The notes: generated by a model not told the origin, from the letters alone. A DNA stretch of 64,000 nt from Rubrivivax sp. (GCA_031372005.1 JANMKK010000023.1:28724-92723); one strand, 5' to 3'; numbered from the stretch's first letter, positions 21,412 to 43,500 are shown. Numbers and translations are program-made.

Positions 21412-24400
21412 GAGGACTCCTGTGTTGCGTTGAGGGCACCCCCAGGCGGCGGCAATGGGCCGGCGCCGTCCCCTGCGGGTGTGGAGTCGACTCGGGAACG
21501 GCCCTTATTCGACTCGGGAGACGATTCGTGCGCCGCGTCAGTGCCAGCGTCATGGACCGCCGGGGCGGCGCGTCGCGGCCTGCGGGGGGACTTCGCGGCC
21601 TTCAAGGACTTCAAGGACTTCGAGGACTTCGAGGCCGGACCGTGCAGCGCGGTCATTCCGGTGCCGCCCTCCACCCAGTGGCGCACCGCCGCCAGTGGAT
21701 GCCCGGGCAGCGCCACGCGCTGCGCGGGCGCGCCGGTCGGCAGCTGCTGCCAGGGCACCTCGCCGCCGGCGACCCAGTGCCGGGCCAGCGCATCAAGGTC
21801 CGTGGCCTGCAGCCAGCTCTGGACGGTGGCGGTCGGCACGGCCGGTAGCCCGCGCGTTGCCGTGCCACGCCACAGGCGCATGCCCTGCGGGCTGTCCGCG
21901 CCCCCATCGACAACCCGGCGCAGGGCGGCAAACAACTGATCGCGGTCGGCGGCCACGACCGCCAGTCGGTGCTCCATCGCGTCGCGGCCGCGCTGCAGCG
22001 TGTAGGCCACGTCGGCCAGTGCAAGCTCTGCCTGCGCGGTCACCGCATCCAGCAGCCGCCGCGCCGATTCGTGCAGCGCCGCAGCAGTACGCGCCGACAG
22101 CACGATCAGGTCGGCACCACCCGCAGCAGCCTGCGGCAATGCCGCCGCGCCCTGCGCGCGGGCCCCGGGGATGTACTCCTCCAGCACCAGGTGGGCGTTG
22201 ATGCCGCTGAAGCCGTAGCTGTTGATGGCGGCACGGCGCGGCAGCGGCCGCCCTGCGGCGTCGAGGACTGCGGGCCACGGCGCGTTGTCGGCCGTGAAGT
22301 GGAAGGCCCCGGTCTTGCCGGCCAGGTTGTCATGCACCTGCGTGAAGCCGGCGATGCCGGGCAGTACCCGATCCCGTAACGCCATCGTGACGCGGACCAG
22401 TGCTGCCATGCCCGAAGCGACCTCGGTGTAGCCGATGCACGGCTTGGCGCTGCCCACTTGCTGCCGCTCGAGCACGCCCTCGGTGCCCTGGAACGTGGCA
22501 GCCAGGCGCTGGAACTCGCTCTTCAGCGCTGCGAACTCGATCGCGTCGCCCAGCGGTGAAGCGGTGCCGTGGGCCTCGACATAGGCCACGCTGCGGGGGT
22601 CGATGCCGCTGGCCTGGTAGGCGCGGCGGATGGCCTCGCGCATGCCGCTGCCGTTGGGCGTGGTCATCGAGACGGTGTGGCCGCCATGCGCGACGCCGAC
22701 GCCGCGGATGACGGCGTGGATGCGGTTGCAGTCGGCCACGGCGTCGCGCAAGGGCTTGACGATCACCGCGCCCACGCCCTCGGCCCTGACGAAGCCGTCG
22801 GCCTCGGCCTGGAACGCGGCCATGCGGCCGGTCGCACTGAGGTAGCCCATGGCCTCGAAGCCGATGTGCCCGGTGGGCGTCAGCAGCAGGTTGACGGCAC
22901 CCACGATGGCCTGCCGGCATTCCCCGCTGCGGATCGCCTGCACCGCGCGGTGCAACGCCACCAGCGTTGACGAACAGGCGGTGTCGCACAACTCGCTGGG
23001 ACCGTGCAGGTCCAGGCTGTGCGAGATGCGGCTTGCGATCATCGACGTCGACAAACCCGTCACCATCAACGGCACGTCCTGCGGGTCGGAAACGCTGTTC
23101 AGGTATTCGCTGGGCACCGTGGCGACGAACACGCCAGTCGACACCTTGCGCAGTTCGCGCGGCGCAATGGCCGCGTCCTCCAGCGCCTTCCACGCGTGCG
23201 TCAACAGCAGCCGCTGCTGCGGCGACATGCAGCTCGCTTCCTTGGGTGTGATGCCGAAGAACTCGGCGTCGAAGGTGTCGATGCCGTCCAGGAAACCGCC
23301 CCACTTGAAGCAGTTTTGGTTGAAGGACTGTGCGGGGTCGCCCCCGACCTGCTCCCAGTCCCAGCGCTGCGCGGGCACCGCGGTGACGCTGTTCACGCCC
23401 GCGAGCTGGTTGCGCCAGAACGTGTCGGCATCGGGTGCGCCGGCGAAGCTCGCGCTCAGCCCGACGATCGCGATCGCGTCCCCGGGCACGGACTCGACGG
23501 CCGTGGCGGTAGCGGCAGCCACGTTGCGCGGTGCAGACAAGAAGCGGTCGTTGGGCCGTTCTGCGGACGGCACCTGCAACACCTTCGGCGGCGTGCTGTC
23601 CGGCAAGGCAACGCCGGCTGCCCGAGCACACGACCGCGTGATCGCTTCAAGGTGTTCGCCCAGCAGGTGGTCGGCCAGCCGGCGCACCGTGCCGTGGTCG
23701 AAGAACAGCGTCACGTCCAGCTCGATGCCGAAGACCTCGTTCAGCGTCTGGGCCAGGTGCACGCCAGTGATCGAGTCCAGCCCGTAATCCGAGAAGGGTT
23801 CGTCGAGGTCGATCGCGTCGCCGTCGACTTTCAGGGCCTGGGCGAGGATGCGCTTGACCGACGCCACGGCATGCGCCCGGACCGCGTCCGCCTCGGGCGC
23901 CGCCACAGCCACTGTGGGCGCGGCGGCAGCTGCCGGCGGCGAGCTGGACTGGGGCATGGCCTGTGCCGGGGTCGCCAGGAAGGCGGCGTAGGCGCCGCGC
24001 GCCAGTTCGGCCAACGGCCGGGTCACGGCCACCAGCGCGAGCTGGGATGCGGGGTCGGCGAGCAGGATCTCCAGCGCCTGCATCGCCTGTGCAGGCTCGA
24101 TCGAACCGACGCCCAGCCTTGCCATGCGCTGGCGCAGAGCCGGTGTTGCCCCAACACCGACGCTTCCCCAATAGCCCCAGTTCATCACCTTGACGGCGCA
24201 CGGCCAGTCCTGTGCCAGTCGCTGCGCGATGGCGTCGGTGGCGGCGCAGCCGGCCACGTAGCCGCACTGCCCCGGAGGCCGCGCGTGCGCCACCAGCGAC
24301 GAGAAGAACAGCACGAAGTCCAGCGCCTCGGCGCCAAAGACCTGCGCCATGCGCACGCTGACGTCGACCTTGGCCGCCAACACGGCGCGCAGGTCCGCCT

Positions 24401-27400
24401 CGTCCATCGCTGCAAGGCTGCGGTCCTTCAAGACGACCGCCGAGTGCACGATGCCGTGGATGCGCGGGAAGGACTGGCGCACGGCTTCATACGCCGCCTG
24501 CAGCGATTCGCGCCGGGTGGCGTCGGCGCTCAGGTACACCGGCCGCGGCCCCAGGCTGCCCAACCGGTCCCGCGCAGCGCGCAGTGCATCGGTCTCCGCA
24601 CGCCGCCCGATCCACACGATCTGGGCCTGGTAGGTGCGGATCATGTATTCGCTCCACACCTCGCCGATGCCGCTGCCCCCACCGATCACGACGTACACGC
24701 CATGCATTCGGTAGGCCGAGTCGCGTGCATGCGGCTGCGGGTTGTTGCCGATGATCTGCAGCGCTGCGAGCTTGTGCTGCACCCAGTCAGCGCCCCGCCG
24801 GGCCCAGGCGCTGCCGCCCGCATCGCAAGGCAGCGAGAAGGCCTCGCCCAGCAGCGCGGCAGCGGCCGGGGCGCCGCCGTCGCCGGTCCCGGTCCAACCC
24901 GGCGGCAGGTCGATCGACCGCACGCGCCAGGACGGCAGCTCCTTGGCCAGCGAGCCCGCCAGGCCGATGACGCCGGCATGCGTCGGGTCTATCGCCGCGT
25001 CACGCTGCGTGCAGCCGGTGGTGATGACCGTCAGGCCCAGCGGCCGTGTGCCGTGGCCGTGCGCCAGCAGCGCCTTCAGCGTGCGCAACAGCGCAACGAC
25101 GCCGCGCTCCTGGTCGGTGACGATGCTTTCGGACGCCGCCGACTCCGGCGCCGCGCGGGGGGCGACCCACACGCAGTGTTCGATGTCGCGCAGCAGCGCT
25201 TGCGGATCTGCCGGCAACCCGGCGGCGATGGTGGCTGCCGGATATACGCGGTGCAACACGGCTGCCGCATCGGCATCGTCGGCCAGCACCAGCAGACGCC
25301 GGCCGTCTGCCGGCCGCAGCCCGTCGGGCCGGGTGCGCAAGATCTCGGCCACCGGCGCCAGCAGCAGCGTGTGCGGCTGGTCGGCTTCGGGTGGGGCCAG
25401 AGTCGCCGGGGCTGACGGCAGGGTTTGCGCGTCCGGCAGTGCACGCGACAGCAAGCCTTCGATGCGCACGCACACCTGGCCGGTGTCGTCGCAGACGTCG
25501 ATGTCCAACGCCTGGACGGCACGGTCGGCGGCCGCCTGGGCGCGCGCCGGGCGCACCCAGGCCCACATCGACTTGGTGCACGGCGCGACCAATTCCAGCG
25601 CCTTCAAGTGAAAGGGCAGCAGCGGCCGGCCGGTCGGCGGTGCGCCATCGCGCCAGAGCAGTCCGATGCCAGCCTGCAGCGCGGCGTCGAGCAGGCTCGG
25701 GTGCAGCAGGTACCCACCCAGCCCCGGCAGCAGTGGCGCCGGCAGTTGCAGGCGCGCCAGCACCTCGGCCTGTCCAGCGCTGCCGACGAACAACTCGGCC
25801 AGCGCGCGGTGCCCCGGCCCATAGCTCAGGCCCATCGACTCGAATGCTGCGTACACCGCATCGGCCGCCAGCACGCGGCCGCCACAGCGGCTTCGCAGCC
25901 CGGCGAGGTCGAGCGGGGCAGCAGCACGGGCAGCGGCAACGTCAGCGTCAACGTCAACGTCAACGTCAACGGCAACGGCAACGGCATTCGCCCGCGCTGC
26001 CGGAGCATCGACCGTGGCCAGGCCCTGGCAATGAAGGCGCGGCTCGCCGCCCGGCGGCTGCACGCGCACCTGGAAGGCGACTTCGCCGTCACCCTGCAAC
26101 GCCAGCTCGACGCGGACATCGAGCCCGGAGCCCGGCTCGGCCACCATCGGCAGCATCCACACCACGTTTCGCAGGCGGCGCACCGGCTGGCGTGCGGCGT
26201 CGGCCAGTGCGGCGCGGCCCATCTCGAGGTACGCCGCCGCCGGCAGCACGCGCCGGCCGAGTGCAACGTGGTCGCGCAGGAAAAACTCCTCGCCGCCGAA
26301 GCGCGCGCGGTAGCGCTGGCTGGTGAAGTCCGAGATGTTGTCGTGCAGCAAAGGGTGCAACTCGACCGCCGCGCCCGCCGCGCCCGCCGTGGGTGTCGAG
26401 CGGGGCACGTTGGCAGTCGCCGCCGGCACCCAGTAGCGCTCGCGAGCAAACGGGTACGGCGGCAGACTGATGCGCTGCGGCCGCTGCGTGTCCGGGTACA
26501 GACGCGGCCAGTCGACCTTCAGCCCCTTGACCCAGAGCTCGGCCAGCTTGTGCAGTTTGCCCTTGGCCAGCCAGGCGGCCACGGCCTGCTCCATGTCCTC
26601 GTCGTCGTGGAAGATGGACATCGACTCGCGGTGTGGCCGCGTGCTGCCCAGGTACAGGCCGACGCCACGCTCTGCGCCGCCCGTCACCGCCTCCAGGCCG
26701 GCGCGCAGCTCAGCCAACGAGCCGACCACGAGCACCAGCCGTTCGGCCATCGCGTCGCGGCCGACCTGCAAGGTGTACGAGAGATCGCGCAACGTGTGCT
26801 CGCCGATCGGCCGGCCGTGGTGGTGTCCGTCGCGCAGCGCCTGCAACAACCGCTGAGCGGCCTGCAGCACCTGCGGCCGGGTGCGCGCGGACAGCGGCAC
26901 CAGCCAGGTTCCGGCCACGGCGCCGGGCCCGGCAGGCTCGGTGGCATCGGGGTATTCCTCCAGCACCACGTGCGCATTGGAGCCACCGAAGCCAAAGGCG
27001 CTGACGCCGGCGCGGCGCGGCAGCAAGCGGCCATCGGCATCGCGGCACGCATCCCAGCTGCGGGCCTGCTGCACCACGTAAAACGGGCTGCCGTCGAGCA
27101 GCAGGTAGGGGTTGGGCTCATCGCTGTGCAGGCTGCGGGCCAGCGTGCGGTGGCGCAGCTGCATCAGCACCTTCATCACACCGGCCACGCCTGCGGCCAG
27201 TTCCAGGTGGCCGATGTTGCTCTTGACGGAGCCCAGGCCGCAGTGAGGTTCGGCCGGCTCGGCGGCGCCGACCTCGCGGTACAGGCCCGCGAACGCACTT
27301 TTCAGCCCGTTGACCTCAATCGGGTCGCCCAGCTCGGTTCCGGTGCCGTGAGCCTCGATGTAGCCGATGCTGCGCGGGTCGACACCGGCCTGGCGGTGCG

Positions 27401-30400
27401 CGGCCTCGACAAGTGCCGCCTGCGCCTTCGGGTTGGGCGCGGTCAGCGAATTTGCGCGGCCGCCGTGGTTTTCGGCACTGCCTTTGATCACGGCGTAGAC
27501 CGGGTCGCCGTCGCGCTGGGCATCGGCCAGGCGCTTGAGGTACAGCACACCCACGCCTTCTCCGCGCACGTAGCCGTTGGCGTGCCTGGAGAAGGCCTTG
27601 CACCGGCCGTCTTCGCACAGCATGCCGGCGCGCCGGAAGCCGATGTGGCCTTCGGGCGTGATCACGGTGTTGACGCCGCCCACCAGGGCGCTGTCGCAGC
27701 TGCCCGCCTGCATCGCGACGATGGCGTGGTGGATGGCCACCAGCGAAGACGAGCAGGCTGTCTCGACCGGCTCACTCGGTCCGTGCAGGCCCAGGAAGTA
27801 GCTGATGCGGTTCGGTGCCACCGAAGGCACGGTGCCCGTGATGGACGATCCCTCAACGGCGTGGCCGGACTGCGCCATCAGGCCGGTGTAGCCGCTGCTG
27901 GCGGTGGCGAGGAAGACGCCGGTGCTGCTGCCCGACAGGCTGCGCGGGTCGGTCCCGGCGTCCTCGATCGCTTGCCACACGTGCTGCAACAGCAGGCGGT
28001 GCTGCGGGTCCATCAGCTCGGCCTCGCGCGGGGAGATGCCGAAGAACAGCGGATCGAACTCGTCGATGCCGTCGATAAAGCCGCCCCACTTGACGTCGGT
28101 CTTGTTGGGCTCCTTCTGCGGGTGGCCCCAGACCGCACGCCAGTCCCAGCGCTCGGCCGGCACTTCGGTGATGCAGTCGCGCCCGGCTTCAAGGTTGCGC
28201 CAGAAGGCGTCGATGCCATCGGCCATCGGGAAGCGGCCGCTGATGCCGACGATCGCGATGTCCACGCTGCCCCGGCCACCGGTGGCCGGCGGGGCAGCGC
28301 CGCGTTCCCGGTGAACACACGGTGGCGGCGCGGTCACGGTCGCAGCCGGTGCTTCGGCCGCGGGCGCGGCGGTTGGCAGGCCGGTGGCCGACTCGATCGC
28401 TTCACGGTAATGCGCAACCAGGTAGCCGGCGAAGCCGCTCAGGGTCGGGTAGTCGAAAAAGATCGTCGGGTTCAGCGGCCGGTCGGCCGGCAGTGCGTAG
28501 CGATCGTTCAGGCGGTTGCCGAATTGCGTGAGGTTGATCGAATCGAAGCCGTACTGGCTGAGTTCGTCGTGTGGATCAATCTCGTCCGCGCTGACCTGCA
28601 GCACCGCACCCACCTCCTGCCGCAGCTCGGCCAGGACGCGCTTGCGCAGGGCGTCGCTGCGGGGCAGGGCGGCCACCGGCGCGCCGGCGACCGGCTGCTG
28701 CCGCGGCCGCGGTGCAGGCCTTTCACCGCTGCGCAGCGACAGCCGGCCCAGGCGCACGCAGACACGGCCATCGCCGTCGAGCAGGTCGATGTCCAGCTTG
28801 TGCACGGCGCCGCTGCTTTCTTCGTCGGCTTCGGGCCGCTGCTGCGGTTGCGGTGCGTGGCGGATCAGCGCCCACATGCGGGGGTTGCATCGGTGCAGCA
28901 GCTGCAGCGACTCCAGCGCGAAGGGCAGTGGCGGCTGCCGTCCAGGCTGCTGCGGCGGCTGCCCGCCCGTGCCCGCCAGCAGCGCCAGCGCGGCATGCAC
29001 GGCGGCGTCCAACAGTGCAGGCGGCAGCAGGCAGTCGGGCTCCAGCGCCGACGGCGCGCGCAGCTCGGCCAGCACGGCAGGCGCACCCGTTTCATCCTGC
29101 CCCGCCAACAACGCGACCACGGCGCGGTAGCTGGGCCCGTACCCGATGCCGATTGCCTCGTAGGTGGCGTACAGCTGCGGCACGGTCATGGGCGCCGGCT
29201 GGAAGGCGGCCCGCCATGCCGCCAAGTCCAGCACCGGCGGGGCCGATCCGGGCTGCGTTGCGGGCGATGTCGCCGCCGGCCGCGCGGTCGCTGACCCCTG
29301 GCAGTGGAGTCGACGCCCGCCGTCGGCGTCGAAGGTGGTGACCTCGAAACCCAGCATCGGCTCGTCCGCCGCAACGGGTGCCTTGATGGCCCGCAGCTCG
29401 ACGAACACCTCGAGCGGCTGCGGCCCGTCGGCTGCGGTGGCGATCGGCTGCAGCCACACGACGTTGCGGATCTGCACGTCCAGCGGTTCAGCGGCCGCCG
29501 CGCCGGCCGGTGGCAAGGCATCGCTCACCGCCGCACGCACCATCTCCAGCGTGGCCACGCCAGGCAGCATCCTGCGGCCGAGCACGCGGTGGTCGGCGAG
29601 CACGGGCTCGTCGCCGGTGAATCGGGTGCGGTAGCGCTGCTGCCCCAGGTGCGAGATGTTCTCGTGCAACAGCGGGTGCAGACGCGGGTGCGGTCGCGGG
29701 TGCGGACGCGGGTGCGGGTGCGGGTGCGGCCGCACCGCCTCCGGCGCCTGCCGCGCGGTGGCCAGGGTATCGGGCAGCCAGTGGCGCCGGCCCTCGAACC
29801 GGGTGCCGGGCAGGTCGGGCAAAAGCTGCCCGCCGGTGCGCCGCGCGAGCTGCGCCCAGTCGATGGTGCGGCCGGCGCACCACTGCACCGCCAGCGCCGT
29901 CCAGGGCACCGGCTGGCCGGCCGGTGGCAGCGCCGCGGCGCTCGTGTCGCGCGGGCCATCGCCGCCGAGCGTGCTGACGTGCACGTTCGGTGGCAGCGCT
30001 GCACCCGCCAGGACGGCGTCGATCAGCGGCGGCAGCGCGTCGAGCCGGTCGACGACGAAGACCACTCGGTGCTTCAGCACATCGCGGCGCTGGCTCGTGG
30101 CGGCCAGGTCCGCCAGCGCGACCGCAGGCCCTGACTTTTCCAGCCACCGCTGCCAGTCGCGCAGCCGTGCAGCCAAGCCGGCCTGCGAGCCCGCCGACGC
30201 GACGATGGCCTGCGGCCCGGCCGGCGGCGGCGCGGCGGCGCCGATCGGGGCGTACGCCTGGACCACGACGTGTGCGTTGTAGCCGCCGGCGGCAAAGGCG
30301 TTGATGCCCGCGATCAGGGTGGCGGGCTCGCCCGCCCGCGCGGTCTGGGGCGCGGTCCACGGCGCAGTCGTGGTGGCCAGCGCGAAGTGCCGCGGCTCGA

Positions 30401-32519
30401 ACGGCAGTTCCGGATCGGGTTCACCCAGCCCATGCACCGCCAGCACCTGACGGTGGCGCATCTGCAGCAGCACCTTGATCAGCGACACCAGCCCGGACGC
30501 CGCCTCGGCGTGGCCGGTAGCGGCCTTGGCCGTGGCCAGCAGGCACGGCGAACCGCTCGCTTCTTCACGCCGCCCGGCAAAGGCCTGGCGGATTGCGGCA
30601 ACTTCTGCGAAGTCCCCGCCGCGCACGCCCGAGGCATGGCATTCGATCAGCGACACCTGGCCCGCATCGACACCGGCCGCGCGCCAGGCTTCGGTGATCG
30701 CCCTGGCCTGTTGCGGCACGTGGCCGGCCACCAGCGACAGGGTGCGGCCGCTGTTGTTGACCGCCGAGCCCGCCAAGAGGCCATGGATGCGGTCGCCGTC
30801 GGCGACGGCGCGCGGCAGTGCCTTCAGGATGACGGCCACGATGGCCTCGCCGCGCAGCTGGCCGCGGCTGTCCTTGCTGAAGACGCGCGCCTGCGGCTCG
30901 TCCGTCAGAAGCGCGTCGCGCCGCACCGCGAAGCCGTAGGGGTGCAGCAGCAGGTTCGTCGCGCCGACGATGGCCTGGTCGATCTCGCCGGCGCGGATCA
31001 GTGCAGCGGCCTCGTGCAGCGCCACCAGCGAACTGGTGCACTCCGCGTTGATGTAGCGGCACGGCCCCTGGATGTCGAAGTGCCGGGCCAGCTTGGCGGG
31101 GAACATCGCGTTTTCGTTGCCGGCCCAGCTGCGCGGCTCGTCCAGCCGCCCGCACTGCTGCAGCAGTTTTTGGTGGTCCTCGCACAGGGTCGCGACGAAC
31201 AGTCCCGTGCGCGGGCCGGCAAAGGCGGCAGCGGGGTGCCCGCTGTCCTCCATCGCATGCACGATCTCCTGCATCAGCAGGCGCTGCTGGGGGTCGATGT
31301 GGGCGGCCTCTTCGGGCAGGATCCGGAAGTACGGTGCATCGAAGTGATCGACGGCATCGATGAAACCCGCATGGCGGATGTCGGTGCCGCTGTGCAGCCA
31401 GGGGCGCGACTCGGGGAATGCCGAGATCAGCGTTTGCCCCGACTGCAGCGCCTCCCAGAACTCCGCCACCGAGTCGCATTGCGGAAAGCGGCCGGCGATC
31501 CCGACGATGGCCACGCCGGGCGGTGCCAGTCCACCGCCAGCCCTGACCGGCGCCGCTGCCGAGGCCTGCACCACCGGTTTGCACTGGCCCTGGAACAGCG
31601 CCTTCAGCCGCGCGCCATGGCGCGTGAAGTCGGTGTCCAGGAACTGGATGTAGTTCTCGATGCGGGTCTTCAGGGCCTGGATCTTGCCGTCACGCACCGT
31701 CATCTGCATCGACGCGATCAACCCGTCGGCACATTGCAGGTGGTGCGGCGACGGCGCGTCGGGCGTCGCCCGCAGGAACACCTGCAGCCATTCGCCACGC
31801 CGGACATACAGGTCGTCAAAACGCGTGCCGCGCTGCGTGCCCAGGCAGGTGTGCAGCGCGTACGCAAAGGTCTTCCACGACTGCACGCCACTGCCCTGCG
31901 TGCGGCCGGTGTCGTACGTCAGGTCTTCGTTCTGGATGTCGTTCATCTCGCGCAGCGAGGCGCGGTTCATGAAGCAGTCGTTCATGCGCTTGAACAGGCC
32001 GCTCATCTGCAGCGTCAGCTCGTCTGTGGTCGGGTAGATGCCGTCACCGTCGTCCACCAGCAGCGGCTCTTCGACGACGCGCGGGTACTGCATCGGTCCG
32101 GCAAACGGCCGCTTGCCCAGCAGGTACAGGTAGTCCGGCGCCTGTTGCCACAGCTCGGCGATCCGGCCGTCCTGCACCCGCAGCACCAGCTTGCAGTAGT
32201 TCGACACCGTGTCGCCGCCGACGATGTCCGGATGCCAGCGGCGCGCCGTCCAGCGGTGAAACAGCAGCACCAGGTCGCCCTGCGCCAGCACCAGCTCCGG
32301 CTGCAAGTCCAGCGCCTGCGTGGCCTGACGGGCCTGGTCCATCAGGCTGTGCAGGGCTGCCAGGCCGTGCAGTTCATCGTCGTGCAGGTGCAGCACCAAT
32401 TGCGGCGCGAAGAGCTGCGCCGCTTCGACCTGCGCAAGCCCGCCGTTCCAGGCCTGCCGGTAGCGGCGGACGATGTCTTCCGCCCAAGGCTGGCGGTAAT
32501 TCTTGCGACTCTGATTCAT
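21408..32519 (-). CDS. trans-AT PKS C (about 3700 aa): SnoaL-SnoaL-KS8(divergent)-DH-ACP-KS9-DH-KR-ACP-KS10(His-to-Tyr); no AT, no TE
   Basis: NTF2-like repeats at about 32480-32130 and 32020-31660. KS8 AECTSS/HASG/GH (about 31520-30260). DH HRVLGRRMLP, DAAVH. ACP GFDSI. KS9 ETACSSS/HGTGT/GH. DH HVALGRRVLP, DAALQ. KR GGGSGIG, LKD, YVAGC. ACP GLDSI. KS10 DTACSST/HGTAS/GYTE. Confidence 0.92.
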   Translation of the reverse strand: MNQSRKNYRQPWAEDIVRRYRQAWNGGLAQVEAAQLFAPQLVLHLHDDELHGLAALHSLMDQARQATQALDLQPELVLAQGDLVLLFHRWTARRWHPDIVGGDTVSNYCKLVLRVQDGRIAELWQQAPDYLYLLGKRPFAGPMQYPRVVEEPLLVDDGDGIYPTTDELTLQMSGLFKRMNDCFMNRASLREMNDIQNEDLTYDTGRTQGSGVQSWKTFAYALHTCLGTQRGTRFDDLYVRRGEWLQVFLRATPDAPSPHHLQCADGLIASMQMTVRDGKIQALKTRIENYIQFLDTDFTRHGARLKALFQGQCKPVVQASAAAPVRAGGGLAPPGVAIVGIAGRFPQCDSVAEFWEALQSGQTLISAFPESRPWLHSGTDIRHAGFIDAVDHFDAPYFRILPEEAAHIDPQQRLLMQEIVHAMEDSGHPAAAFAGPRTGLFVATLCEDHQKLLQQCGRLDEPRSWAGNENAMFPAKLARHFDIQGPCRYINAECTSSLVALHEAAALIRAGEIDQAIVGATNLLLHPYGFAVRRDALLTDEPQARVFSKDSRGQLRGEAIVAVILKALPRAVADGDRIHGLLAGSAVNNSGRTLSLVAGHVPQQARAITEAWRAAGVDAGQVSLIECHASGVRGGDFAEVAAIRQAFAGRREEASGSPCLLATAKAATGHAEAASGLVSLIKVLLQMRHRQVLAVHGLGEPDPELPFEPRHFALATTTAPWTAPQTARAGEPATLIAGINAFAAGGYNAHVVVQAYAPIGAAAPPPAGPQAIVASAGSQAGLAARLRDWQRWLEKSGPAVALADLAATSQRRDVLKHRVVFVVDRLDALPPLIDAVLAGAALPPNVHVSTLGGDGPRDTSAAALPPAGQPVPWTALAVQWCAGRTIDWAQLARRTGGQLLPDLPGTRFEGRRHWLPDTLATARQAPEAVRPHPHPHPRPHPRPHPRLHPLLHENISHLGQQRYRTRFTGDEPVLADHRVLGRRMLPGVATLEMVRAAVSDALPPAGAAAAEPLDVQIRNVVWLQPIATAADGPQPLEVFVELRAIKAPVAADEPMLGFEVTTFDADGGRRLHCQGSATARPAATSPATQPGSAPPVLDLAAWRAAFQPAPMTVPQLYATYEAIGIGYGPSYRAVVALLAGQDETGAPAVLAELRAPSALEPDCLLPPALLDAAVHAALALLAGTGGQPPQQPGRQPPLPFALESLQLLHRCNPRMWALIRHAPQPQQRPEADEESSGAVHKLDIDLLDGDGRVCVRLGRLSLRSGERPAPRPRQQPVAGAPVAALPRSDALRKRVLAELRQEVGAVLQVSADEIDPHDELSQYGFDSINLTQFGNRLNDRYALPADRPLNPTIFFDYPTLSGFAGYLVAHYREAIESATGLPTAAPAAEAPAATVTAPPPCVHRERGAAPPATGGRGSVDIAIVGISGRFPMADGIDAFWRNLEAGRDCITEVPAERWDWRAVWGHPQKEPNKTDVKWGGFIDGIDEFDPLFFGISPREAELMDPQHRLLLQHVWQAIEDAGTDPRSLSGSSTGVFLATASSGYTGLMAQSGHAVEGSSITGTVPSVAPNRISYFLGLHGPSEPVETACSSSLVAIHHAIVAMQAGSCDSALVGGVNTVITPEGHIGFRRAGMLCEDGRCKAFSRHANGYVRGEGVGVLYLKRLADAQRDGDPVYAVIKGSAENHGGRANSLTAPNPKAQAALVEAAHRQAGVDPRSIGYIEAHGTGTELGDPIEVNGLKSAFAGLYREVGAAEPAEPHCGLGSVKSNIGHLELAAGVAGVMKVLMQLRHRTLARSLHSDEPNPYLLLDGSPFYVVQQARSWDACRDADGRLLPRRAGVSAFGFGGSNAHVVLEEYPDATEPAGPGAVAGTWLVPLSARTRPQVLQAAQRLLQALRDGHHHGRPIGEHTLRDLSYTLQVGRDAMAERLVLVVGSLAELRAGLEAVTGGAERGVGLYLGSTRPHRESMSIFHDDEDMEQAVAAWLAKGKLHKLAELWVKGLKVDWPRLYPDTQRPQRISLPPYPFARERYWVPAATANVPRSTPTAGAAGAAVELHPLLHDNISDFTSQRYRARFGGEEFFLRDHVALGRRVLPAAAYLEMGRAALADAARQPVRRLRNVVWMLPMVAEPGSGLDVRVELALQGDGEVAFQVRVQPPGGEPRLHCQGLATVDAPAARANAVAVAVDVDVDVDADVAAARAAAPLDLAGLRSRCGGRVLAADAVYAAFESMGLSYGPGHRALAELFVGSAGQAEVLARLQLPAPLLPGLGGYLLHPSLLDAALQAGIGLLWRDGAPPTGRPLLPFHLKALELVAPCTKSMWAWVRPARAQAAADRAVQALDIDVCDDTGQVCVRIEGLLSRALPDAQTLPSAPATLAPPEADQPHTLLLAPVAEILRTRPDGLRPADGRRLLVLADDADAAAVLHRVYPAATIAAGLPADPQALLRDIEHCVWVAPRAAPESAASESIVTDQERGVVALLRTLKALLAHGHGTRPLGLTVITTGCTQRDAAIDPTHAGVIGLAGSLAKELPSWRVRSIDLPPGWTGTGDGGAPAAAALLGEAFSLPCDAGGSAWARRGADWVQHKLAALQIIGNNPQPHARDSAYRMHGVYVVIGGGSGIGEVWSEYMIRTYQAQIVWIGRRAETDALRAARDRLGSLGPRPVYLSADATRRESLQAAYEAVRQSFPRIHGIVHSAVVLKDRSLAAMDEADLRAVLAAKVDVSVRMAQVFGAEALDFVLFFSSLVAHARPPGQCGYVAGCAATDAIAQRLAQDWPCAVKVMNWGYWGSVGVGATPALRQRMARLGVGSIEPAQAMQALEILLADPASQLALVAVTRPLAELARGAYAAFLATPAQAMPQSSSPPAAAAAPTVAVAAPEADAVRAHAVASVKRILAQALKVDGDAIDLDEPFSDYGLDSITGVHLAQTLNEVFGIELDVTLFFDHGTVRRLADHLLGEHLEAITRSCARAAGVALPDSTPPKVLQVPSAERPNDRFLSAPRNVAAATATAVESVPGDAIAIVGLSASFAGAPDADTFWRNQLAGVNSVTAVPAQRWDWEQVGGDPAQSFNQNCFKWGGFLDGIDTFDAEFFGITPKEASCMSPQQRLLLTHAWKALEDAAIAPRELRKVSTGVFVATVPSEYLNSVSDPQDVPLMVTGLSTSMIASRISHSLDLHGPSELCDTACSSTLVALHRAVQAIRSGECRQAIVGAVNLLLTPTGHIGFEAMGYLSATGRMAAFQAEADGFVRAEGVGAVIVKPLRDAVADCNRIHAVIRGVGVAHGGHTVSMTTPNGSGMREAIRRAYQASGIDPRSVAYVEAHGTASPLGDAIEFAALKSEFQRLAATFQGTEGVLERQQVGSAKPCIGYTEVASGMAALVRVTMALRDRVLPGIAGFTQVHDNLAGKTGAFHFTADNAPWPAVLDAAGRPLPRRAAINSYGFSGINAHLVLEEYIPGARAQGAAALPQAAAGGADLIVLSARTAAALHESARRLLDAVTAQAELALADVAYTLQRGRDAMEHRLAVVAADRDQLFAALRRVVDGGADSPQGMRLWRGTATRGLPAVPTATVQSWLQATDLDALARHWVAGGEVPWQQLPTGAPAQRVALPGHPLAAVRHWVEGGTGMTALHGPASKSSKSLKSLKAAKSPRRPRRAAPAVHDAGTDAAHESSPESNKGRSRVDSTPAGDGAGPLPPPGGALNATQESS

Positions 32520-32609: not shown

Positions 32610-34427
32610 CTACAGAAAGAGGTCGGCCTTCTCGCGCCGGGCGTTGCTGCCGCGCAGGTAGGGGATGCGCACGCGCTGCGCGTGCTCCTTCATCGCGGCA
32701 AGTTTCTCGAAGATGGCCGCGGCCTGGTCCTTGCGCTGTGCGGGCTGCACGTGCGTGGCGATCTGGCGCAGGAACTCGAAGTACTGCTTGTCGACCACCA
32801 CCTGCTCCTCCCACAGCTCGCGCGCGATATGTGCCGCAGGCGACTCCAGCCCCTTGCGGAACATGTAGTACGACGAGATGCGCCGGCGCGCCTGATCGAC
32901 GATGCCGGAGAGGAATTTCATCGCGTCCAGCGGGCCGATGTTGGAGCTCAGCAGGGTGTCGTACACGGTCTGCGTGCGCGCGAAACCGCGCACGTGGCGG
33001 CTGTAGTGCTCGCCGTAGACCTTTGGCTGCTCGATGATCTTGTCCGCCATCGAGGCCATGCACGCCAGCATGCTGATCTGCGAGCCGGAGGTAAACCACG
33101 TGCTGGCTGCGCTGCCGCCGACCATGGACCAGTTGCTGCCGAAGCAGCGCTCGTACATGAAGTGCTGCGACGGCACGCTGACGATCTCCTTGCGGCGCGA
33201 GAAGTCCTTCGTGTAGTCCAGGCCGCGAATCTGGTAGGCCTTGGTCAACGCGGTGATGATCTCTTCCGGGTTGCGGTCACCGATGTCCTGGGGCAGCACG
33301 CTGATCCCGACCGACACGTAGCTGCCCAGCGGAATGAACCAGGACACGCCCTCCAGCCCGTCGACGGCCTGGTGCGCGCGCAGCAGCGTGGTCGCGTGCA
33401 TCCAGGGCAGGTCTTCGCGGTGGCACAGGTCCTTGCGGTCCTTCTGGCAGTAGTGCGTGAAGATCACCTGGCGCGGCGCGTCGAAGTCCTGATACGGGAT
33501 CGCAAGCTTGCGACCGAGCAGGCGGATGTGGTTCGTGCAGTCCCAGACATAGGTCGGCGAGATCGTCTCGCCGGACTTCAGCCGCAACGCAGTGATCTTG
33601 TCGCTGGCGGCGTCGTGTTCGACGTCGGTGACCACGCTGTCGATCCAGTGGCATTCGGGACGGACGCTCACTTCGTCGAACAGGGCCTGGTCGAAGCCGA
33701 TGCGGTCGACGTGGATGAAGGTGCGCGGCACGTCGTTCTCGAACAGCGAAGCCATGGTGCCGAAGAAGTCGAAGCGCAGCCCGGCGACGATGTCGCCCAT
33801 GAAGAACGGTGTCATGTCCTTCTTGAACAGGTACTTCTCGTAGCCTTTGAAGTCTTGCGTGAACTCGATCGTGCAGGCCTCGGTCATCGACTCGCCCAGC
33901 TTCGGGGTGTCGCCGAGCTGGCTGGAGCCGACCAGCACATGGTGAATGTTCTTCTTGCACAGCGCGCGGCTGATCAGCATGCCGCCGATGCCGCCGCCGA
34001 CGATGACCGGGACGTTCTGCGGCAGTGGCTTCTTCGCAGTCTGGGCCAAGTGCCGCAGCGAGACCGCATCGGCCGCATCGGCCGTCATCCGTGCTTCGAG
34101 CGTCTGCCACATCGCGTCGTCACCGCCGGTCTGTGGCGCCTTCACGGCAGCCGTCGCGGGCTTGGACAGGGCGCGCTCGACGGCACCGTGCTTGTGCTCG
34201 AGCAGGTAGCCTACGAAGGCGTTCAGCGTCGAGTGTTCAAAGAACACACCGGGGTGGACGTCATCGCCCAACCAGGCCGACATTTTCTCGACGAAGCTGA
34301 CGAGCGTCACCGAGCCGAAGCCCAGCTCCTGGATGTTGACGTCGGCCGCGATGTCGCGCGGGGACAGGTCGAGCGTTTCCGAAACCAGCGTGAGGACCTT
34401 GTCCAGCAGTGCCTGCTTGTGTTCCAT
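32610..34427 (-). CDS. ACP fused to a flavin-dependent oxygenase/halogenase-fold enzyme
   Basis: N-terminal ACP with LGFGSVTL. Then GGGIGG, GESM, HVDRIGFDQAL, SWFIPLG..SVG and WSMVGGSAA; agga RBS before ATG 34427. Confidence 0.8.
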   Translation of the reverse strand: MEHKQALLDKVLTLVSETLDLSPRDIAADVNIQELGFGSVTLVSFVEKMSAWLGDDVHPGVFFEHSTLNAFVGYLLEHKHGAVERALSKPATAAVKAPQTGGDDAMWQTLEARMTADAADAVSLRHLAQTAKKPLPQNVPVIVGGGIGGMLISRALCKKNIHHVLVGSSQLGDTPKLGESMTEACTIEFTQDFKGYEKYLFKKDMTPFFMGDIVAGLRFDFFGTMASLFENDVPRTFIHVDRIGFDQALFDEVSVRPECHWIDSVVTDVEHDAASDKITALRLKSGETISPTYVWDCTNHIRLLGRKLAIPYQDFDAPRQVIFTHYCQKDRKDLCHREDLPWMHATTLLRAHQAVDGLEGVSWFIPLGSYVSVGISVLPQDIGDRNPEEIITALTKAYQIRGLDYTKDFSRRKEIVSVPSQHFMYERCFGSNWSMVGGSAASTWFTSGSQISMLACMASMADKIIEQPKVYGEHYSRHVRGFARTQTVYDTLLSSNIGPLDAMKFLSGIVDQARRRISSYYMFRKGLESPAAHIARELWEEQVVVDKQYFEFLRQIATHVQPAQRKDQAAAIFEKLAAMKEHAQRVRIPYLRGSNARREKADLFL

Positions 34428-34517: not shown

Positions 34518-37500
34518 CTACGGCGTGCCGACCTGCGGCGCCGTGCGCCGCTCGGCGGGTTGCACGAAGGTCTCGTAGAACAGCGCGTCGAAGGGGTCGG
34601 CGGGTTGCTTCGCAGCCCCTTCTGCGCGGGCTGGCAAACCAGGCGGCTCCCACCAGACCCGCCGTTCCTGGAAGGGGTAGGTCGGAATCGCCACCCGGCG
34701 TGGCGCTGCGTCGCTGCCCCATGAGGCGTCGATCGCCCCGCCCGCCAGCCAGGCCCGGGCCCGTGCCGCCATGCCACCCGCACCCGCACCCGCACCCGCA
34801 CCCGTGCCTGCGCCTGCGCCTGCGCCCGAGGCTGGCCCGGCAGCTGGGGCGGCGTGCGTCGCTGCCTTTGGCTTGCGTGCGGCGTGGCCCACTGCGGCGA
34901 AGAGGCCGGGCGACTCGACAGGCCCTGTGGCCAGTGCATCGGCGCCTCGCGCCAGCAGGTCCATCAGCACCGGGATGCTGTCGGCCACGAAAGCTGCCCG
35001 GTAGGGCATCGCGTCGCGGCCGGTGCGGGACGCAGCAGCCAGCTCATCCAGAGTCGCTCTTTCGTCCGCCACACACGCGGCCAGGTGCGCGTGCCAGCGC
35101 TTGAAGTGCGCGTCCAGCGCGGCACGCGACCGCGCCGACAACAGCACCAGCTGGGGGCCGCCGGCGCCTGCAGGCGCGGCCAGTCGCGGTGCGGTTGGAT
35201 GCTCTTCGAGCAGCACGTGCGCGTTGACGCCGCCGATGCCGATTGAATGCAGGCCCACGCGCCGTGGCGGTGGCGGCGCGCCGCCTGCGGTCGGCAGGCG
35301 TTCCCAGGGCGTGGCCTCGGTCGGGAAGTGGAATGGTGAGCCGGCCAGCAGGATCGACGGGTGCAGCTTCGACCAGGTTGCGATCGGTGCGATCGTGCCC
35401 TCGCGCAGCGCCAGCACTGCCTTGATCAGCGAAGCCATGCCGGACGCGCCTTCGAGGTGACCGATGTTGGCCTTGACGGTGCTGACCGCGCAGCGGTGCT
35501 GGCGGTAGTGCTCGGCGCTCATCGATTCCTTGAAGTGCAGCTTGAACGCGGCCAGTTCCGACGCGTCGCTGAAGCTGTTGGCGGTGCCGTGCGCCTCGAT
35601 GTAGTTCACCGCCTCCGGTCCGAAGCCGGCACAGCGGTAGGCCTCGCGCATCGCCTGGCGCTGGCCTTCGACACTGGGCGCCACCTGCGACAGGGCGCGG
35701 CGGCCGTTGTGCGTGATGCCGATGCCGGCGATCACCGCGTGCACCGTGTCGCCGTCGCGCTCGGCCTGGTCGAGTGCCTTGAGCAGCACGCAACCCACGC
35801 CCTCGCCGCGCACGTAACCTTCAGCCTGTGCGTCGAACGGGAACATGCGCGGCGTGCGGGTCAGGATCTCTCCCGCGTCGCGGTCGGCAAAGCCGGCGGG
35901 GTCGAGCAGGATCTTCGCGCCGCCAACGATCGCGGTTTCGCATTCACCGCTGGCAATGGCCTGCGCGGCGCGGCGCAGCGCAACGAAGGTGCTTGCGCAG
36001 GCGGTGTCGACCGCCTCGCTGGGCCCCTTGAAGTCGCAGTGGTACGAGATGCGGTTGGCAATCATGCCGGCGCTGGTCAGGATGGGCGCGCCGGCCGCCG
36101 CGTCGCCGTGCTGCCGCGGCAGCGTCGCATAGTCCACCGCGTCCAGCGCCAGGAACAGGCCGACACGGCGCTGGGTCAGCGTCTGCATCGACACGCCGGC
36201 CTGCTCGACACAGTGCCAGATGCTGCGCAACAGCAGCCGCTCTTGCGGGTCCATCGCCCGCGCATCGCCGTCGGCAATGTCCCAGAAGTCGGCATCGAAC
36301 TGGTCGATGCCCTGCAGCAGGGCGGCATGGCGCATGGCCGGGAAACTGGCGTCGCGCCCGCAGGCCACGCCGCGCGCGTGCCACTCCGAGGGTGGCACGT
36401 CTTCGGTGGCGATTTCCTTGGACAGCAGCTTGCGCCAGTAGGTCGGCACGTCGGGCGCGCCCGGCAGCCGGGCGTCGTAGCCGATGATCGCGACCCGCTG
36501 CGTTGGCGATGGCGTTGGCGTTGGCGATAGAGATGGCGATAGAGATGGCGATGGCGATGGCGATGGCGATGGCGTTGGCGTTGGTGTCGGTGTCGGTGTC
36601 GGCTCGGCGGCCGGTGGCTCCGTGGGCGCAAGCGCTTGCAGGTGCTCGATCAACTTGCCGGCGGTGTTGAGTTCCAGGAAAACCGCGCCGGTGTATTCGA
36701 GCCCGAGCCGCTGGTTGATCGCGTTGGCCACCTTGGTGGCGCCGATCGAGTCCATGCCGTAGTCGGCGAAATCCACCTGCAGGTCCACCGTCTCCGGCGC
36801 CATTCCCAGCGCTTCGGCCACGGCCGCGCGCGCCACCGACTCGACCGCGTCGCGCTGCTCGGCGCGCAGCGCGGAAGACGCGGTTGACGCGCCCGTGCGG
36901 GTTGACGCGGCACGCGCAGCCGCCGGCCGTGCAGGGCGCGCCAGCAGCCGGGCCACTTTCTGGCGGTCGCCTTCGAACACACCGAACTGGTGTTCCGGCG
37001 ATGCCAGTGCCGCCGCGAAGGCCTGGACGCCGGTGGCTTCGCCGAGCGGCACGATGCCCAAGGTCTCACGCATGAACTGCTCGTAGGCCGGCTGCACCGA
37101 CATGCCACCGTCGCGCCACAACGGCCAGTCGATGGCCAGGCTGCGGCCCTGTCGCTTCCCGCGCGCAACCTGCTCAGCACGCCAGCCCGCGAAGGCGCCG
37201 AGGAAGGCGTTGGCAGTGGCGTAGTCGAACTGCCCCGGGTTGCCCAGCGCCGCCACCGACGAGAACGCGACGAAGAAGTCCAGTGCCTGGTCGCGCGTGG
37301 CCTCGTCCAGGTGCACGATGGCCTGCGCCTTGGCCGTTATCACTGCGGCCACTTCGGACTCGGTTTTCCTCGAGATGAAGTTGTCGGCCAGCACGCCTGC
37401 GCTGTGCACCACACCGTGCAGAGCACCGTGTTCGACCACGATGTGGGCGACCAGGCGCCGCACATCCTTCCAGTCGCTGGTGTCGCAAGGCAGGTACTCG

Positions 37501-40500: not shown

Positions 40501-43500
40501 GCCAGGAAGTTTTCGGCGCCTGAACAGTCGCCTTCGGCCGCCGGCGCCGCACCTGCGGCAGCCGCGGCAGGCAGCGCAGACGTCGCCACCGTTGCGGCTG
40601 CAAGCGGTACTGCCGCTGACGCCGCACGCGGCACCGCCGCGCCGTCACTGCTGCCGTTGATGGCGCTGGCATCGCGCACCAGCTTGCAGGCGTAGTTCCG
40701 CAGCTCGGCCACCTGGCGGCCGGTGGTGGCGTCGAAGAACTCGAGGTTCATGTACAGCAGCTCGTTGCGGCGCCGTACCGATGCTGCGGGAATGCGCGTG
40801 ATGCAGCGTTCGCGCAGCGCTGCGCTGGCGCGGAAGGATTCGTAGAACAGCGGCAGGATCAGCCGCGATTCGCCCTCGAAGAAGGCCGCGAACAACCGCT
40901 GCGCGCCGACGCTGCTGCCGTCGATCAGCGTCGGGTGGAACAGGTGGCTGCCGGCGCCGGGCAGCGCCTGCGCGCCCAGCGCGATCTCGATGCAGGTTGC
41001 ATCCTCGGCTTCGTGCACCTGCCCCTCGGCCTTGATGACCCCCGCATGGTCCAGGCGCTGCAGCCGGCACTGCCCGTACAGCGTGTCGAGATCCAGGCTG
41101 CGCTGCGCCTGGTGGCGGACGGCTGCGACGTCGATCGTGGCGCCGAAGGCCACCGGCCCAGCCTGCCGCATCTCGGCCACGGCGTAGCGCTTGGGCTCGG
41201 ACAGTGCTGGGCCGCGCTGCTCGCGGCCCAGCAGCTCGATCTGCCACACGGGGCCCGCGCTCTCCGTGCAGCGGATGTCGAGCAGCACCGACTGGTCGGC
41301 GTCCACCGTCAGCGGCTGGTAGATGGAGAGGTTGCGCAGCTCGAGTTGGCCGTGGTCGAAACCCAGGCCCTGGAAGTGCTGGAACAGCAGGTCGATGTAG
41401 GCCAGCCCTGGCAGGAGGCGCTGCCCATAGGCCTTGTGGTCGCGCAGCACCGGGTGCTCGGCGCTCAGGAGATAAGGAGCGGACGCCGCCGACGACACAC
41501 GCGGCCAGGCCGCCGGCAGCGGGCCCGACACCACGGCCGCAGCCACTTCGGCTGCGGCTTGCAGCGCGCCTTGCGCTGCAGCTCCCGCACCGATGTGCCG
41601 CCGCTTCAGCGCCGGCAGGGCCAGCGGGCGGCGGCGTGGCGCGTCCTGCGCTGCGCTCTGCCAGGCCTCCAGGATCACGTGCACGTTTGTGCCGCCATCG
41701 GCAAAGCAGTTGACGGCGGCCAGCGCACGCCCTTCAGCCCAGGGCGAGGCCTCGCGTGTGAAACTGAAGGGAGACGCACCGATGTCGAAGTGCTGCATGG
41801 GCTCCTGGCCCGACAGGAACGGCACGCTCATGCGGTGCGACAGCATCGACGCCGCCTGGATGAACGCTGCCATGCCCTTGGCCGCGAGCGGATGCCCGAT
41901 GTTGGGCTCGGTGGAGCCCAGTTCGCAGGGCACGGGCGCAGCGTCTGCGGGCCGGTAGACCGCCTGCAGCGCCTTCAACTCCAGCAGGTCGGTCACTTCG
42001 CTGCCGGAGCCGTTGACGTGGATGTAGCGCACCTGCTCGGGCGTCGCGCCGCTGTCGTGCAGCGCGCGCTGCATCACCGCCTTCTGGGCCTGCAGGTTCG
42101 GCGTCGCCGGGCCGGCGGTGCGGCCGTCGTTGTTGACGGCCAGGCCCCGGATCACGGCATGGATGCGGTCGCCGTCGCGCAGCGCCTGCTGCACGGTCTT
42201 CAGCAGCACCATGCCCACGCCTTCGCCCAGCACCACACCGCCAGCGCGGCGGTCGAAGATGTGGAATTCGCCGGCGCGGGCCAGCAGCTTGCGTCGCTCG
42301 AACAGGCGGTGCACCTCGTCCGAACGCAGCAGGCTGATGCCACCCACCAGCGCGGCACCGATTTGGCCGGCACGCAGCGCGTGCACCGCCATCTGCATCG
42401 CCACCAGCGCCGACGAGCAGGCGGTGTCGACCACCAGGCTCGGTCCGCGCAGGTCAAAGCACTGCGACAGGTTGGCGGCAAGGTAGTTCTGCCCCACCGC
42501 GACGATCGGATTGCGCGCTTGCGCCAGCGTGCTGTCGTCCGGCCGGTGGTTGCTGCGTGCACCGATGAAGACCCCGGTCTCGCTGCCCTTCATCTCCCGG
42601 GCCTCGTAGCCGGCGTGGTGGAACACGCGCAAGCCTTCCTCCAGCAGCATCAGGGCCTGCGGGTCCATGGCTGCGGCATCGCTGTCCGGGATCAGGAAGT
42701 GGCCGGGGTCGAAATGCGCCACGTCGTCGAGCAGGCCGGCGTGGAATGCCGTGGCGCGCCCCCACCGTTCGGCAGGCACGGCCTGGATGCCGGAGCGCCC
42801 TTCGGACAACAGCTGCCAGAACGCGTCGAGGTCGGGCGCGCCCGCGAAGCGGCACGACAAGCCCACCACCGCGATGTCCAGCCCCGCGCCGGGCAGGGTG
42901 GCGGCACCGGCTTCGCCCGCTGCAGCCTGCGGCGTGAGCGGAGCAGGCGGCATAGGGGGCAGGATGGATGGCGGGGTGGATGGCGGCGCAGTGGCCGCTG
43001 CCACCGCCGGCACCCCAGACCCCACGGCCACCACGGCCTGCGCCGGCGCCAGCGCCCGGCCCAGGGCCTGGGCGTGCGTGCCGCCGAGCCAGTCCGCGAA
43101 CGAATTCAGCGTCGGGTGCTCGTAGAACACCGAAGGATCGAGCGCCTCGGCCTTGCCGGCCGCGTTCAGGGCGTCGTCGACGCGGCGCAGGATCTGCGCC
43201 AGCATGATCGAATCGACGCCATAGTCGGTGAACGGCACCTCCGGGTCCAGGGAACCTGGCGCCAGCATCAGTTCCATGGAAAACAGGCGGGTCAGCCAGG
43301 CCACGACTTCGCTGCGGCCGGCAGGGGCCGGCACCGTCGTGGCTGTGGTGGCTGTGGTGGCTGTCGTGGCTGTCGGGGCGGCCGGCGCCGCAGCGCGCAG
43401 CATCAATCGCTGCGGCTGCCAGGCGGCGTCCGCGACCAGCGCCGGCAACACCACCGGCCCTGGCCGCTGGCCGATCACCTGGTCGAGCAGGCGCAGCCCC

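Follow-up and report, generated by a model that had tools for sequence, protein, structure and literature searches.

The 64,000-nucleotide stretch of Rubrivivax sp. DNA analysed here (GCA_031372005.1 JANMKK010000023.1:28724-92723; hereafter the window) encodes on its minus strand a polyketide synthase (PKS) of the trans-acyltransferase (trans-AT) type with 3703 amino acids (aa), gene A (window 21408-32519), whose N-terminus carries two consecutive NTF2/SnoaL-like domains, D1 and D2, directly followed by a ketosynthase (KS). This KS, the eighth counted from the first PKS gene and therefore called KS8, resembles the non-elongating type (KS0), and the gene just before gene A codes for an acyl carrier protein (ACP) fused to a flavoenzyme with the fold of flavin-dependent halogenases, a linkage that is strictly kept wherever the didomain locus was examined. 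We favour, tentatively and at slightly less than an even chance, the reading that the NTF2 pseudo-dimer, the KS0 and the ACP-fused halogenase-like enzyme form a conserved in-line bimodule for alpha-functionalisation, probably halogenation, in which the NTF2 pair would serve as an acid/base or cyclisation partner. The N-terminal part of gene A is laid out as follows:

32115..32498, minus strand: NTF2/SnoaL-like domain 1 (D1), residues 8-135, assigned from Pfam SnoaL_2, AlphaFold2 secondary structure and conservation.
32028..32114, minus strand: structured inter-domain linker with a short beta-hairpin, residues 136-164, assigned from AlphaFold2 and conservation.
31587..32027, minus strand: NTF2-like domain 2 (D2), residues 165-311, assigned from the hhalign comparison with D1, AlphaFold2, the two-domain Foldseek matches and conservation.
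31515..31586, minus strand: variable Ala/Pro-rich linker between the didomain and KS8, residues 312-335, assigned from its identity of 20% and its low predicted local distance difference test (pLDDT) score.

Both segments are confirmed, by profile comparison and structure prediction together, as real NTF2/SnoaL-like domains. D1 matches Pfam SnoaL_2 (PF12680) with an E-value of 3.3e-12 and 47.3 bits against a cut-off of 27, and it also passes the threshold of Pfam SnoaL (29.4 bits, cut-off 28.4). D2 has no Pfam match, no Pfam LEH match was found in the didomain, and no NCBIfam model covers the region. When profiles made from 20 homologues were compared with hhalign, D1 and D2 aligned over 127 columns (probability 93%, E 2.5e-7). 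The AlphaFold2 model of the didomain, based on a 12-sequence alignment (pLDDT 82, predicted template-modelling score 0.84), contains two alpha+beta cones in which the order helix-helix-strand-strand-helix-four-strands occurs twice; the inter-domain linker has predicted strands at 153-156 and 161-163 (pLDDT 75-96), and residues 320-330 of the linker to KS8 have pLDDT values below 50. Foldseek retrieved 303 fold matches from the PDB at E<=0.001, the best 50 of which are NTF2-like proteins: Lsd19 comes first (E 1.3e-11), followed by the MonBI-MonBII complex, and further matches are AclR, IdmH, KstA15, ChaU, SnoaL2, ketosteroid isomerases and an LEH-like hydrolase. The two-domain matches extend over 300-330 columns with template-modelling (TM) scores of 0.31-0.39 and a root-mean-square deviation (rmsd) of about 17 Å, and these values mean that the Lsd19 match reflects two consecutive NTF2 domains, not a common assembly. 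Sequence searches of the PDB with the single didomain sequence, the whole profile and the D1 profile gave marginal NTF2 matches, none of which yielded a usable alignment with an enzyme whose catalytic residues are known (SnoaL, Lsd19, LEH, LinA). An earlier note, made from the sequence alone, had proposed tandem NTF2/SnoaL-like domains in front of KS8, and this proposal holds for fold and position alike; the peptides it quoted are present in the translation of gene A. The span it gave, 31660-32500, stops short of the final strand and helix of D2; the unit extends to about 31587.

Conservation was measured over 20 homologues. Mean pairwise identity is 41% for D1, 46% for D2 and 20% for the linker to KS8, that is, the two domains are equally constrained at the sequence level and the linker is free. 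D1 is recognised by the hallmark RW-x4-WH-P-DI ... SN, and D2 by G-x-G-[VI]-x2-WK-TF-x-Y and EN-Y-I-x-FL-D-TDF. Ten residues of D1 (W24, L70, W90, W95, H96, S106, V112, W124, L133 and G135) and fourteen of D2 (G205, G211, W215, K216, L261, G266, T285, N289, F293, L294, R304, L308, F309 and G311) are identical in all 20 sequences, as is P146 of the inter-domain linker. H96, S106, K216, N289 and R304 are invariant polar residues, and D98, N107, Y220, R240 and R250 are nearly invariant.

The didomain is rare, as the earlier note had claimed of NTF2-like domains in PKS proteins: a search of 1.84 billion representative proteins gave 34 matches, about 19 of which hold the complete unit, in every case as the N-terminal part of a long PKS, and we found no paper describing it. 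Two matches with many repeated stretches, P0026 and P0031, are spurious (Ig-repeat/RTX adhesins). The didomain occurs once in the genome from which the window comes (4.17 Mb, 465 contigs, 93% complete) and is absent from the 24 congeneric and 16 same-order genomes searched, which places it in an accessory cluster. Among the named carriers are a Lysobacter metagenome-assembled genome (MAG), MAGs of Duganella and of a gammaproteobacterium, Aliikangiella and Photorhabdus luminescens. In the Lysobacter MAG (L001:9011-10990, L007:7048-9030), the whole 330-aa unit is duplicated, placing four NTF2-like domains before the KS, and the first copy is the more diverged one (48% versus 60% identity to the window). 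At L005:9968-10000, the called start of P0006 is apparently too far downstream; the didomain homology runs 33 bases further upstream, in frame.

The genes and domains with which the didomain is associated in the window are the following:

30339..31514, minus strand: KS8, divergent, residues 336-727, assigned from Pfam and motif alignments.
28419..29672, minus strand: dehydratase (DH) and ACP that close the non-elongating module after KS8, assigned from Pfam and motifs.
32610..34427, minus strand: partner gene, encoding the ACP and the flavin-dependent-halogenase-like flavoprotein, assigned from Pfam, PDB profile matches, AlphaFold2, Foldseek and the C-terminal tail.
35253..36494, minus strand: KS7, the C-terminal end of the upstream PKS, preceded by KS-ketoreductase (KR)-ACP, assigned from Pfam and motifs.

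Pfam recognises in gene A, in this order, SnoaL_2 (residues 17-122), KS, DH, ACP, KS, DH, KR, ACP and KS, and it identifies the gene just before it as an ACP-flavoprotein fusion. The PKS gene that precedes the ACP-flavoprotein encodes 6631 aa and ends with KS-DH-ACP-KS-KR-ACP-KS. In all 11 loci examined (L001-L008 as DNA, two ENA contigs as gene tables only, and Sulfidibacter corallicola L010), the gene next upstream of the NTF2-bearing PKS is that of the ACP-flavoprotein; thus, the connection that the earlier note drew between the didomain and this gene is upheld by gene order. The resulting cassette has the layout KS-KR-ACP-KS / ACP-halogenase-like / NTF2(-NTF2)-KS, the upstream module being KS-KR-ACP-KS in all three cluster types that were dissected (the window type, Photorhabdus and Sulfidibacter). 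What surrounds the cassette differs. The window, Aliikangiella and the metagenomic loci L005/L006 have downstream genes in common, the P0010/P0016 clusters run on into further giant PKSs, the Photorhabdus cluster, read over a 22-kb locus, has as its last PKS an NTF2-NTF2-KS-half-DH protein, and the next domains in Sulfidibacter are KS-methyltransferase (MT)-ACP. With such different surroundings, the loci are not copies of one cluster. On the ENA contigs of P0010/P0016, the first PKS has 2-oxoacid dehydrogenase acyltransferase and biotin/lipoyl domains, which are unusual for a PKS.

The KS8 class has the signature ECxASGVR[GE]GDF. KS8 of the window retains the C/H/H residues; across the class, the Cys and the second His are preserved, whereas the position of the first His, which functions in decarboxylation, holds H, Q, N, Y or S according to lineage. 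Since the decarboxylation His is not conserved in its class, KS8 is probably a transacylating, non-elongating KS0 despite the His present in the window copy. KS7 and its orthologues keep C/H/H, KS7 having HGTAN, and we propose that KS7 feeds the ACP of the flavoenzyme. The DH behind KS8 has H977 and D1171xxxH.

The partner flavoenzyme is, by sequence and predicted fold, a homologue of flavin-dependent halogenases. Its 28-sequence profile matches the pyrrolyl-carrier halogenases Mpy16 (E 2.5e-6) and PltA in the PDB, and nearly all of the best 50 PDB matches that Foldseek found for its AlphaFold model (pLDDT 86) are flavin-dependent halogenases (RadH, BrvH, Bmp2, PltA, CtcP, PyrH, PrnA, Thal and others). 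Its motifs are VIVGGGIGG, of the GxGxxG type, GES and SWFIP. K203 (codon 33819-33821) is invariant in all 28 diverse members of the family and aligns with the Lys-Lys of Mpy16 (FPKKFG), which we take to hold the catalytic Lys. The C-terminal tail of the enzyme (window 32613-32690), with the pattern [VI]-x-[IL]-PYL-[RK]-x-S-x2-R-x2-K-x-LF, is found in the 17 of 17 aligned ACP-flavoenzymes of the didomain clade, for 10 loci of which the partner gene was verified, and is absent from stand-alone relatives; this conserved tail could be a docking peptide. The neighbourhoods of the stand-alone relatives, which are 441 aa long, are of non-PKS character and show no obvious NTF2 gene.

How such a cassette might work can be pictured from characterised systems. 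In the MupA/MmpD-MmpA and OocM/OocL-OocN bimodules of mupirocin and oocydin, a flavoenzyme alters the alpha-carbon of a beta-keto thioester at a subunit junction and a KS0 takes the product, and OocM turnover needs the KS0 of OocN (PMC10952193). The layout described here matches that of these alpha-hydroxylation bimodules, with a flavoenzyme step at the junction and then a non-elongating KS, and we therefore read the cassette as an alpha-functionalisation bimodule made of different parts, in the order KS-KR-ACP-KS / ACP-flavoenzyme / NTF2-NTF2-KS0-DH-ACP, to which we likewise give somewhat less than even odds. The parts do differ: MupA and its homologue OocM belong to the class C flavin monooxygenases, presumably luciferase-like, and act in trans on a PKS ACP, whereas the enzyme described here shows the halogenase fold and forms one protein with its ACP. 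In addition, no NTF2 domain has been described for the alpha-hydroxylation bimodules, whose upstream module has its own KR, while here the KS0 bears the NTF2 pair. The suggestion to look first at the oocydin family led to a parallel in architecture only; the oocydin paper that we searched mentions three flavin enzymes and no NTF2, SnoaL or cyclase.

If the cassette functions along these lines, KS7 would extend the chain onto the flavoenzyme's own ACP, giving, by collinearity, a 5-hydroxy-3-oxo, probably 6-ene, acyl thioester. The flavoenzyme would then transfer an electrophile, halogen more likely than oxygen, to the activated alpha-carbon, a step that MupA performs with oxygen on a beta-keto thioester. 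The NTF2 pair could contribute the acid/base chemistry typical of the fold in either of two ways: by making or stabilising the thioester enolate for attack, or by using the new leaving group in an intramolecular displacement, cyclisation or elimination, as in cryptic halogenation. Finally, KS0 would take the product on to the DH-ACP. The scheme builds on the fold and duplication of the didomain, its invariant polar residues, the strict gene linkage, the partner's halogenase fold and the KS0-like character of KS8, which the analysis shows; the substrate, the halogenation and the reaction catalysed by the NTF2 pair are inferred. In its fullest form, this proposal describes a previously undescribed trans-AT module in which an ACP-fused flavin halogenase and an NTF2 pseudo-dimer-KS0 halogenate a beta-keto thioester, the halide then being used or removed to give ring closure or elimination, and in which the halogenase-NTF2 pair is older, existing in fused form outside PKSs and having been recruited later into assembly lines; put together in this way, it is rather doubtful.

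Several points weigh against the bimodule reading. Across the flavoenzyme family, the WxWxIP motif reads VSWFIP, with loss of the first Trp, and GDAARFVDP reads GGSAASTWF, with loss of the GD and DP flavin contacts; due to these degenerate motifs, we rate true halogenase activity as only a little better than even. The conserved polar residues of the didomain are known from the alignment, which is compatible with positions in a pocket or at an interface, and the flavoenzyme tail would suit docking just as well. The DH after KS0 lacks an obvious beta-hydroxy substrate in a scheme where KS7 elongates without any KR acting, which is a weakness. The didomain and the distant fused flavoenzyme-NTF2 forms described below have no invariant residues in common, and no product has been assigned for any member of the family.

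The same degenerate motifs, unlike those of typical halogenases, favour oxygenation, in which the halogenase-like protein would be a monooxygenase acting on the beta-keto thioester and the NTF2 pair a hydroxylase partner of the SnoaL2/AclR type, a ketol isomerase or a SnoaL-type aldolase. Alpha-hydroxylation has precedent at such junctions, and the best single-domain fold matches are AclR, KstA15 and SnoaL2, which are hydroxylases, and IdmH. However, the Lys is invariant across the 28 diverse family members, and the nearest solved relatives by fold and sequence are almost all halogenases, which makes oxygenation distinctly improbable in our judgement. PltA, Mpy16 and Bmp2, the nearest solved relatives of the partner enzyme, have the same Lys and act on carrier-bound substrates, but they chlorinate or brominate pyrrolyl-S-carrier proteins in which the carrier is unfused, they have canonical WxWxIP and GDAA motifs, and they have no NTF2 partner. 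The SnoaL/SnoaL_2 family (SnoaL, AknH, SnoaL2, AclR and IdmH) is similar in that D1 scores above the SnoaL_2 threshold and that its members are single-domain fold neighbours; they differ in being free-standing and belonging to type II or cis-AT pathways, and RW-x4-WH-P-DI...SN is specific to the didomain family.

The nature of the partner enzyme also bears on the view, included in the earlier note, that the pair opens an epoxide in the manner of Lsd19 or MonB. According to this view, an alkene in the chain carried by the ACP is epoxidised by the flavoenzyme, and the NTF2 pair then lets a hydroxyl or enol oxygen open the epoxide, so that a tetrahydrofuran or pyran ring is formed on line. Lsd19 and MonBI/MonBII (PDB 3RGA, 4RZM, 9KW6) are paired NTF2-like domains in polyketide tailoring with the same tandem arrangement, their position at the top of the Foldseek results fits this view, and by collinearity (upstream KS0-DH-ACP and KS-KR-ACP) the intermediate probably has a 5-hydroxyl and a 6,7-alkene. 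Those enzymes, however, are free-standing, act after the PKS and have epoxidase partners of the PHBH type, whereas the didomain is fused to a KS and its partner is a homologue of halogenases, not an epoxidase of the Lsd18/MonCI type: its neighbours in sequence and fold are halogenases, the halogenase Lys is kept, and none of its best 50 Foldseek matches is annotated as an epoxidase, so that no source of an epoxide is visible. The domains are also oriented differently (the Lsd19 match has a TM score of 0.31-0.37 and an rmsd of 17 Å), sequence identity is 10-18%, and the lack of an LEH match in Pfam counts against epoxide opening as well. In the alignment, no acidic residue is invariant in D1 residues 1-97, the N-terminal half in which the Asp/Glu pair of Lsd19/MonB is presumably located, and D166 and D199 of D2 occur in 18 of the 20 homologues. 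Altogether, we regard an ether cyclase of this type as very unlikely, and the analysis gives no support to epoxide opening in the Lsd19/MonB sense.

Two variant forms lend support to the bimodule reading and are also informative with respect to a further alternative, in which the pseudo-dimer is a non-catalytic docking or scaffold unit that binds the conserved tail of the flavoenzyme and so holds the enzyme at the entrance of the next subunit. The first is found in Sulfidibacter corallicola (L010:12076-13330), where the PKS begins with a single NTF2 domain that combines the hallmark of D1 (RW-x4-WHP-x-I...SNF) with that of D2 (GIxEWKTW), also has the C-terminal motif NY-I-F-x-FG common to both, and on these motifs looks like the state before duplication. 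It is followed by a KS remnant of ~260 aa (the C-terminal half, without the active-site Cys) and then by a normal KS-MT-ACP, and its retention beside a decayed KS implies that the NTF2 domain persists without an intact KS0. The second consists of P0117-P0119, distant relatives of the flavoenzyme that lack the ACP and have a C-terminal region of ~150 aa matching the D2 profile (E 6e-7 for P0117 with hmmsearch; E 9e-5 at a probability of 59% with hhalign). The one neighbourhood checked, that of P0117 (L011:10001-11818), has no PKS genes, and the next gene encodes DUF1702. If the fusion is right, these relatives suggest, with moderate confidence, that the two proteins cooperate independently of a PKS.

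The docking alternative is attractive in that the didomain is situated exactly at the subunit junction, that the PYL-x-S-x2-R-x2-K-x-LF tail is confined to the didomain clade in the manner described above, and that the NTF2 fold is a known peptide binder; the dependence of OocM on the OocN KS0, together with the absence of known docking motifs from such bimodules, also speaks for it. It has to contend with the size of the unit, because PKS docking domains are short helical terminal elements of about 30-40 aa, and the didomain is a 300-aa two-domain fold that, at 330 aa, is about ten times as large as known trans-AT docking elements. Invariant His, Ser and Lys residues and the near-invariance of other polar residues likewise argue against it, as do the apparent fusion of the NTF2 domain to ACP-less flavoenzymes, one of them in a non-PKS neighbourhood, and the persistence of the domain in Sulfidibacter, where the tail differs. 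The earlier note had itself named docking as an alternative; it is weakened by the halogenase-NTF2 fusions outside PKS clusters, and we consider it unlikely.

Finally, the NTF2 pair may act as a chaperone that protects a labile beta-keto thioester with an alpha substituent against hydrolysis or decarboxylation before it passes to KS0. ActVI-ORFA, an NTF2-like protein, is reported to prevent degradation of an intermediate (PMC11315284), and the mupirocin paper raises the possibility that the bimodule stabilises a labile product. Nothing specific speaks against this explanation, but His, Ser and Lys are strongly conserved, a pattern more typical of catalytic function, and we hold the chance that it is correct to be slight.

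Returning to the bimodule reading, a further analogy is provided by the Hal-ECH1-ECH2(-ER) arrangement of curacin and jamaicamide, in which an ACP-bound intermediate is halogenated in line and subsequent domains exploit the halide. That arrangement differs in using an Fe/2-oxoglutarate halogenase in a cis-AT PKS, in acting on a 3-hydroxy-3-methylglutaryl (HMG)-type beta-branch, and in having no NTF2 domains. Neither LgaL, an NTF2 protein of the lagriamide pathway that stands alone, nor the non-haem iron halogenase of largimycin offers a precedent. Our literature search, which is provisional in that many subscription papers fell outside it, revealed neither an NTF2 domain inside a trans-AT PKS module nor an NTF2-partnered ACP-fused halogenase-like enzyme. 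Thus, the parts and the general logic are known, and the combination is, provisionally, new.

Some additional features of the window should be mentioned. Gene A, in a window with a G+C content of 70%, starts with the ATG at 32519, which has GGAG six bases before it. Just ahead of its first DH there is a His-Pro repeat linker (RPHPHPHPRPHPRPHPRLHP; window 29670-29735, residues about 930-950). In its last KS (window 21408-23480), the second catalytic His is replaced by Tyr (GYTE), and neither an ACP nor a thioesterase (TE) follows. Directly after gene A lies a gene for an unannotated protein of ~250-270 aa (window 20602-21411), which is likewise present in all orthologous clusters L004-L007. KS5 (window 41400-42900, gene B residues 3844-4227) reads HVNGSGS, having lost its first His; a DH-like domain and an ACP come after it, and the stretch resembles a standard dehydrating module of the non-elongating kind. 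Window 4920-7031 (plus strand), situated on the opposite arm of the cluster, encodes a FadH-like protein with Oxidored_FMN and Pyr_redox_2 domains, from which the halogenase-like enzyme might obtain reduced flavin; no FadH-like gene was seen in the examined flanks of the homologous clusters.

In-line tailoring modules are a source of the unusual chemistry of trans-AT polyketides, and they are reused in evolution-guided PKS engineering. A compact and portable cassette consisting of an ACP-halogenase-like protein and an NTF2-KS0, recurring in unrelated assembly lines of hosts that include Lysobacter-like and Duganella MAGs, Aliikangiella, Photorhabdus, Xenorhabdus and Sulfidibacter, would be a new part of this kind. 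If it is true that an aliphatic beta-keto thioester is halogenated and that the halide is then used, the NTF2 fold would gain a new job, and, to our knowledge, the cassette would constitute a flavin-dependent counterpart to the Fe/2-oxoglutarate cryptic-halogenation cassettes. In any case, the cassette flags a family of orphan clusters without an assigned product, some of which reside in cultivable and genetically tractable hosts such as Photorhabdus luminescens and Xenorhabdus budapestensis.

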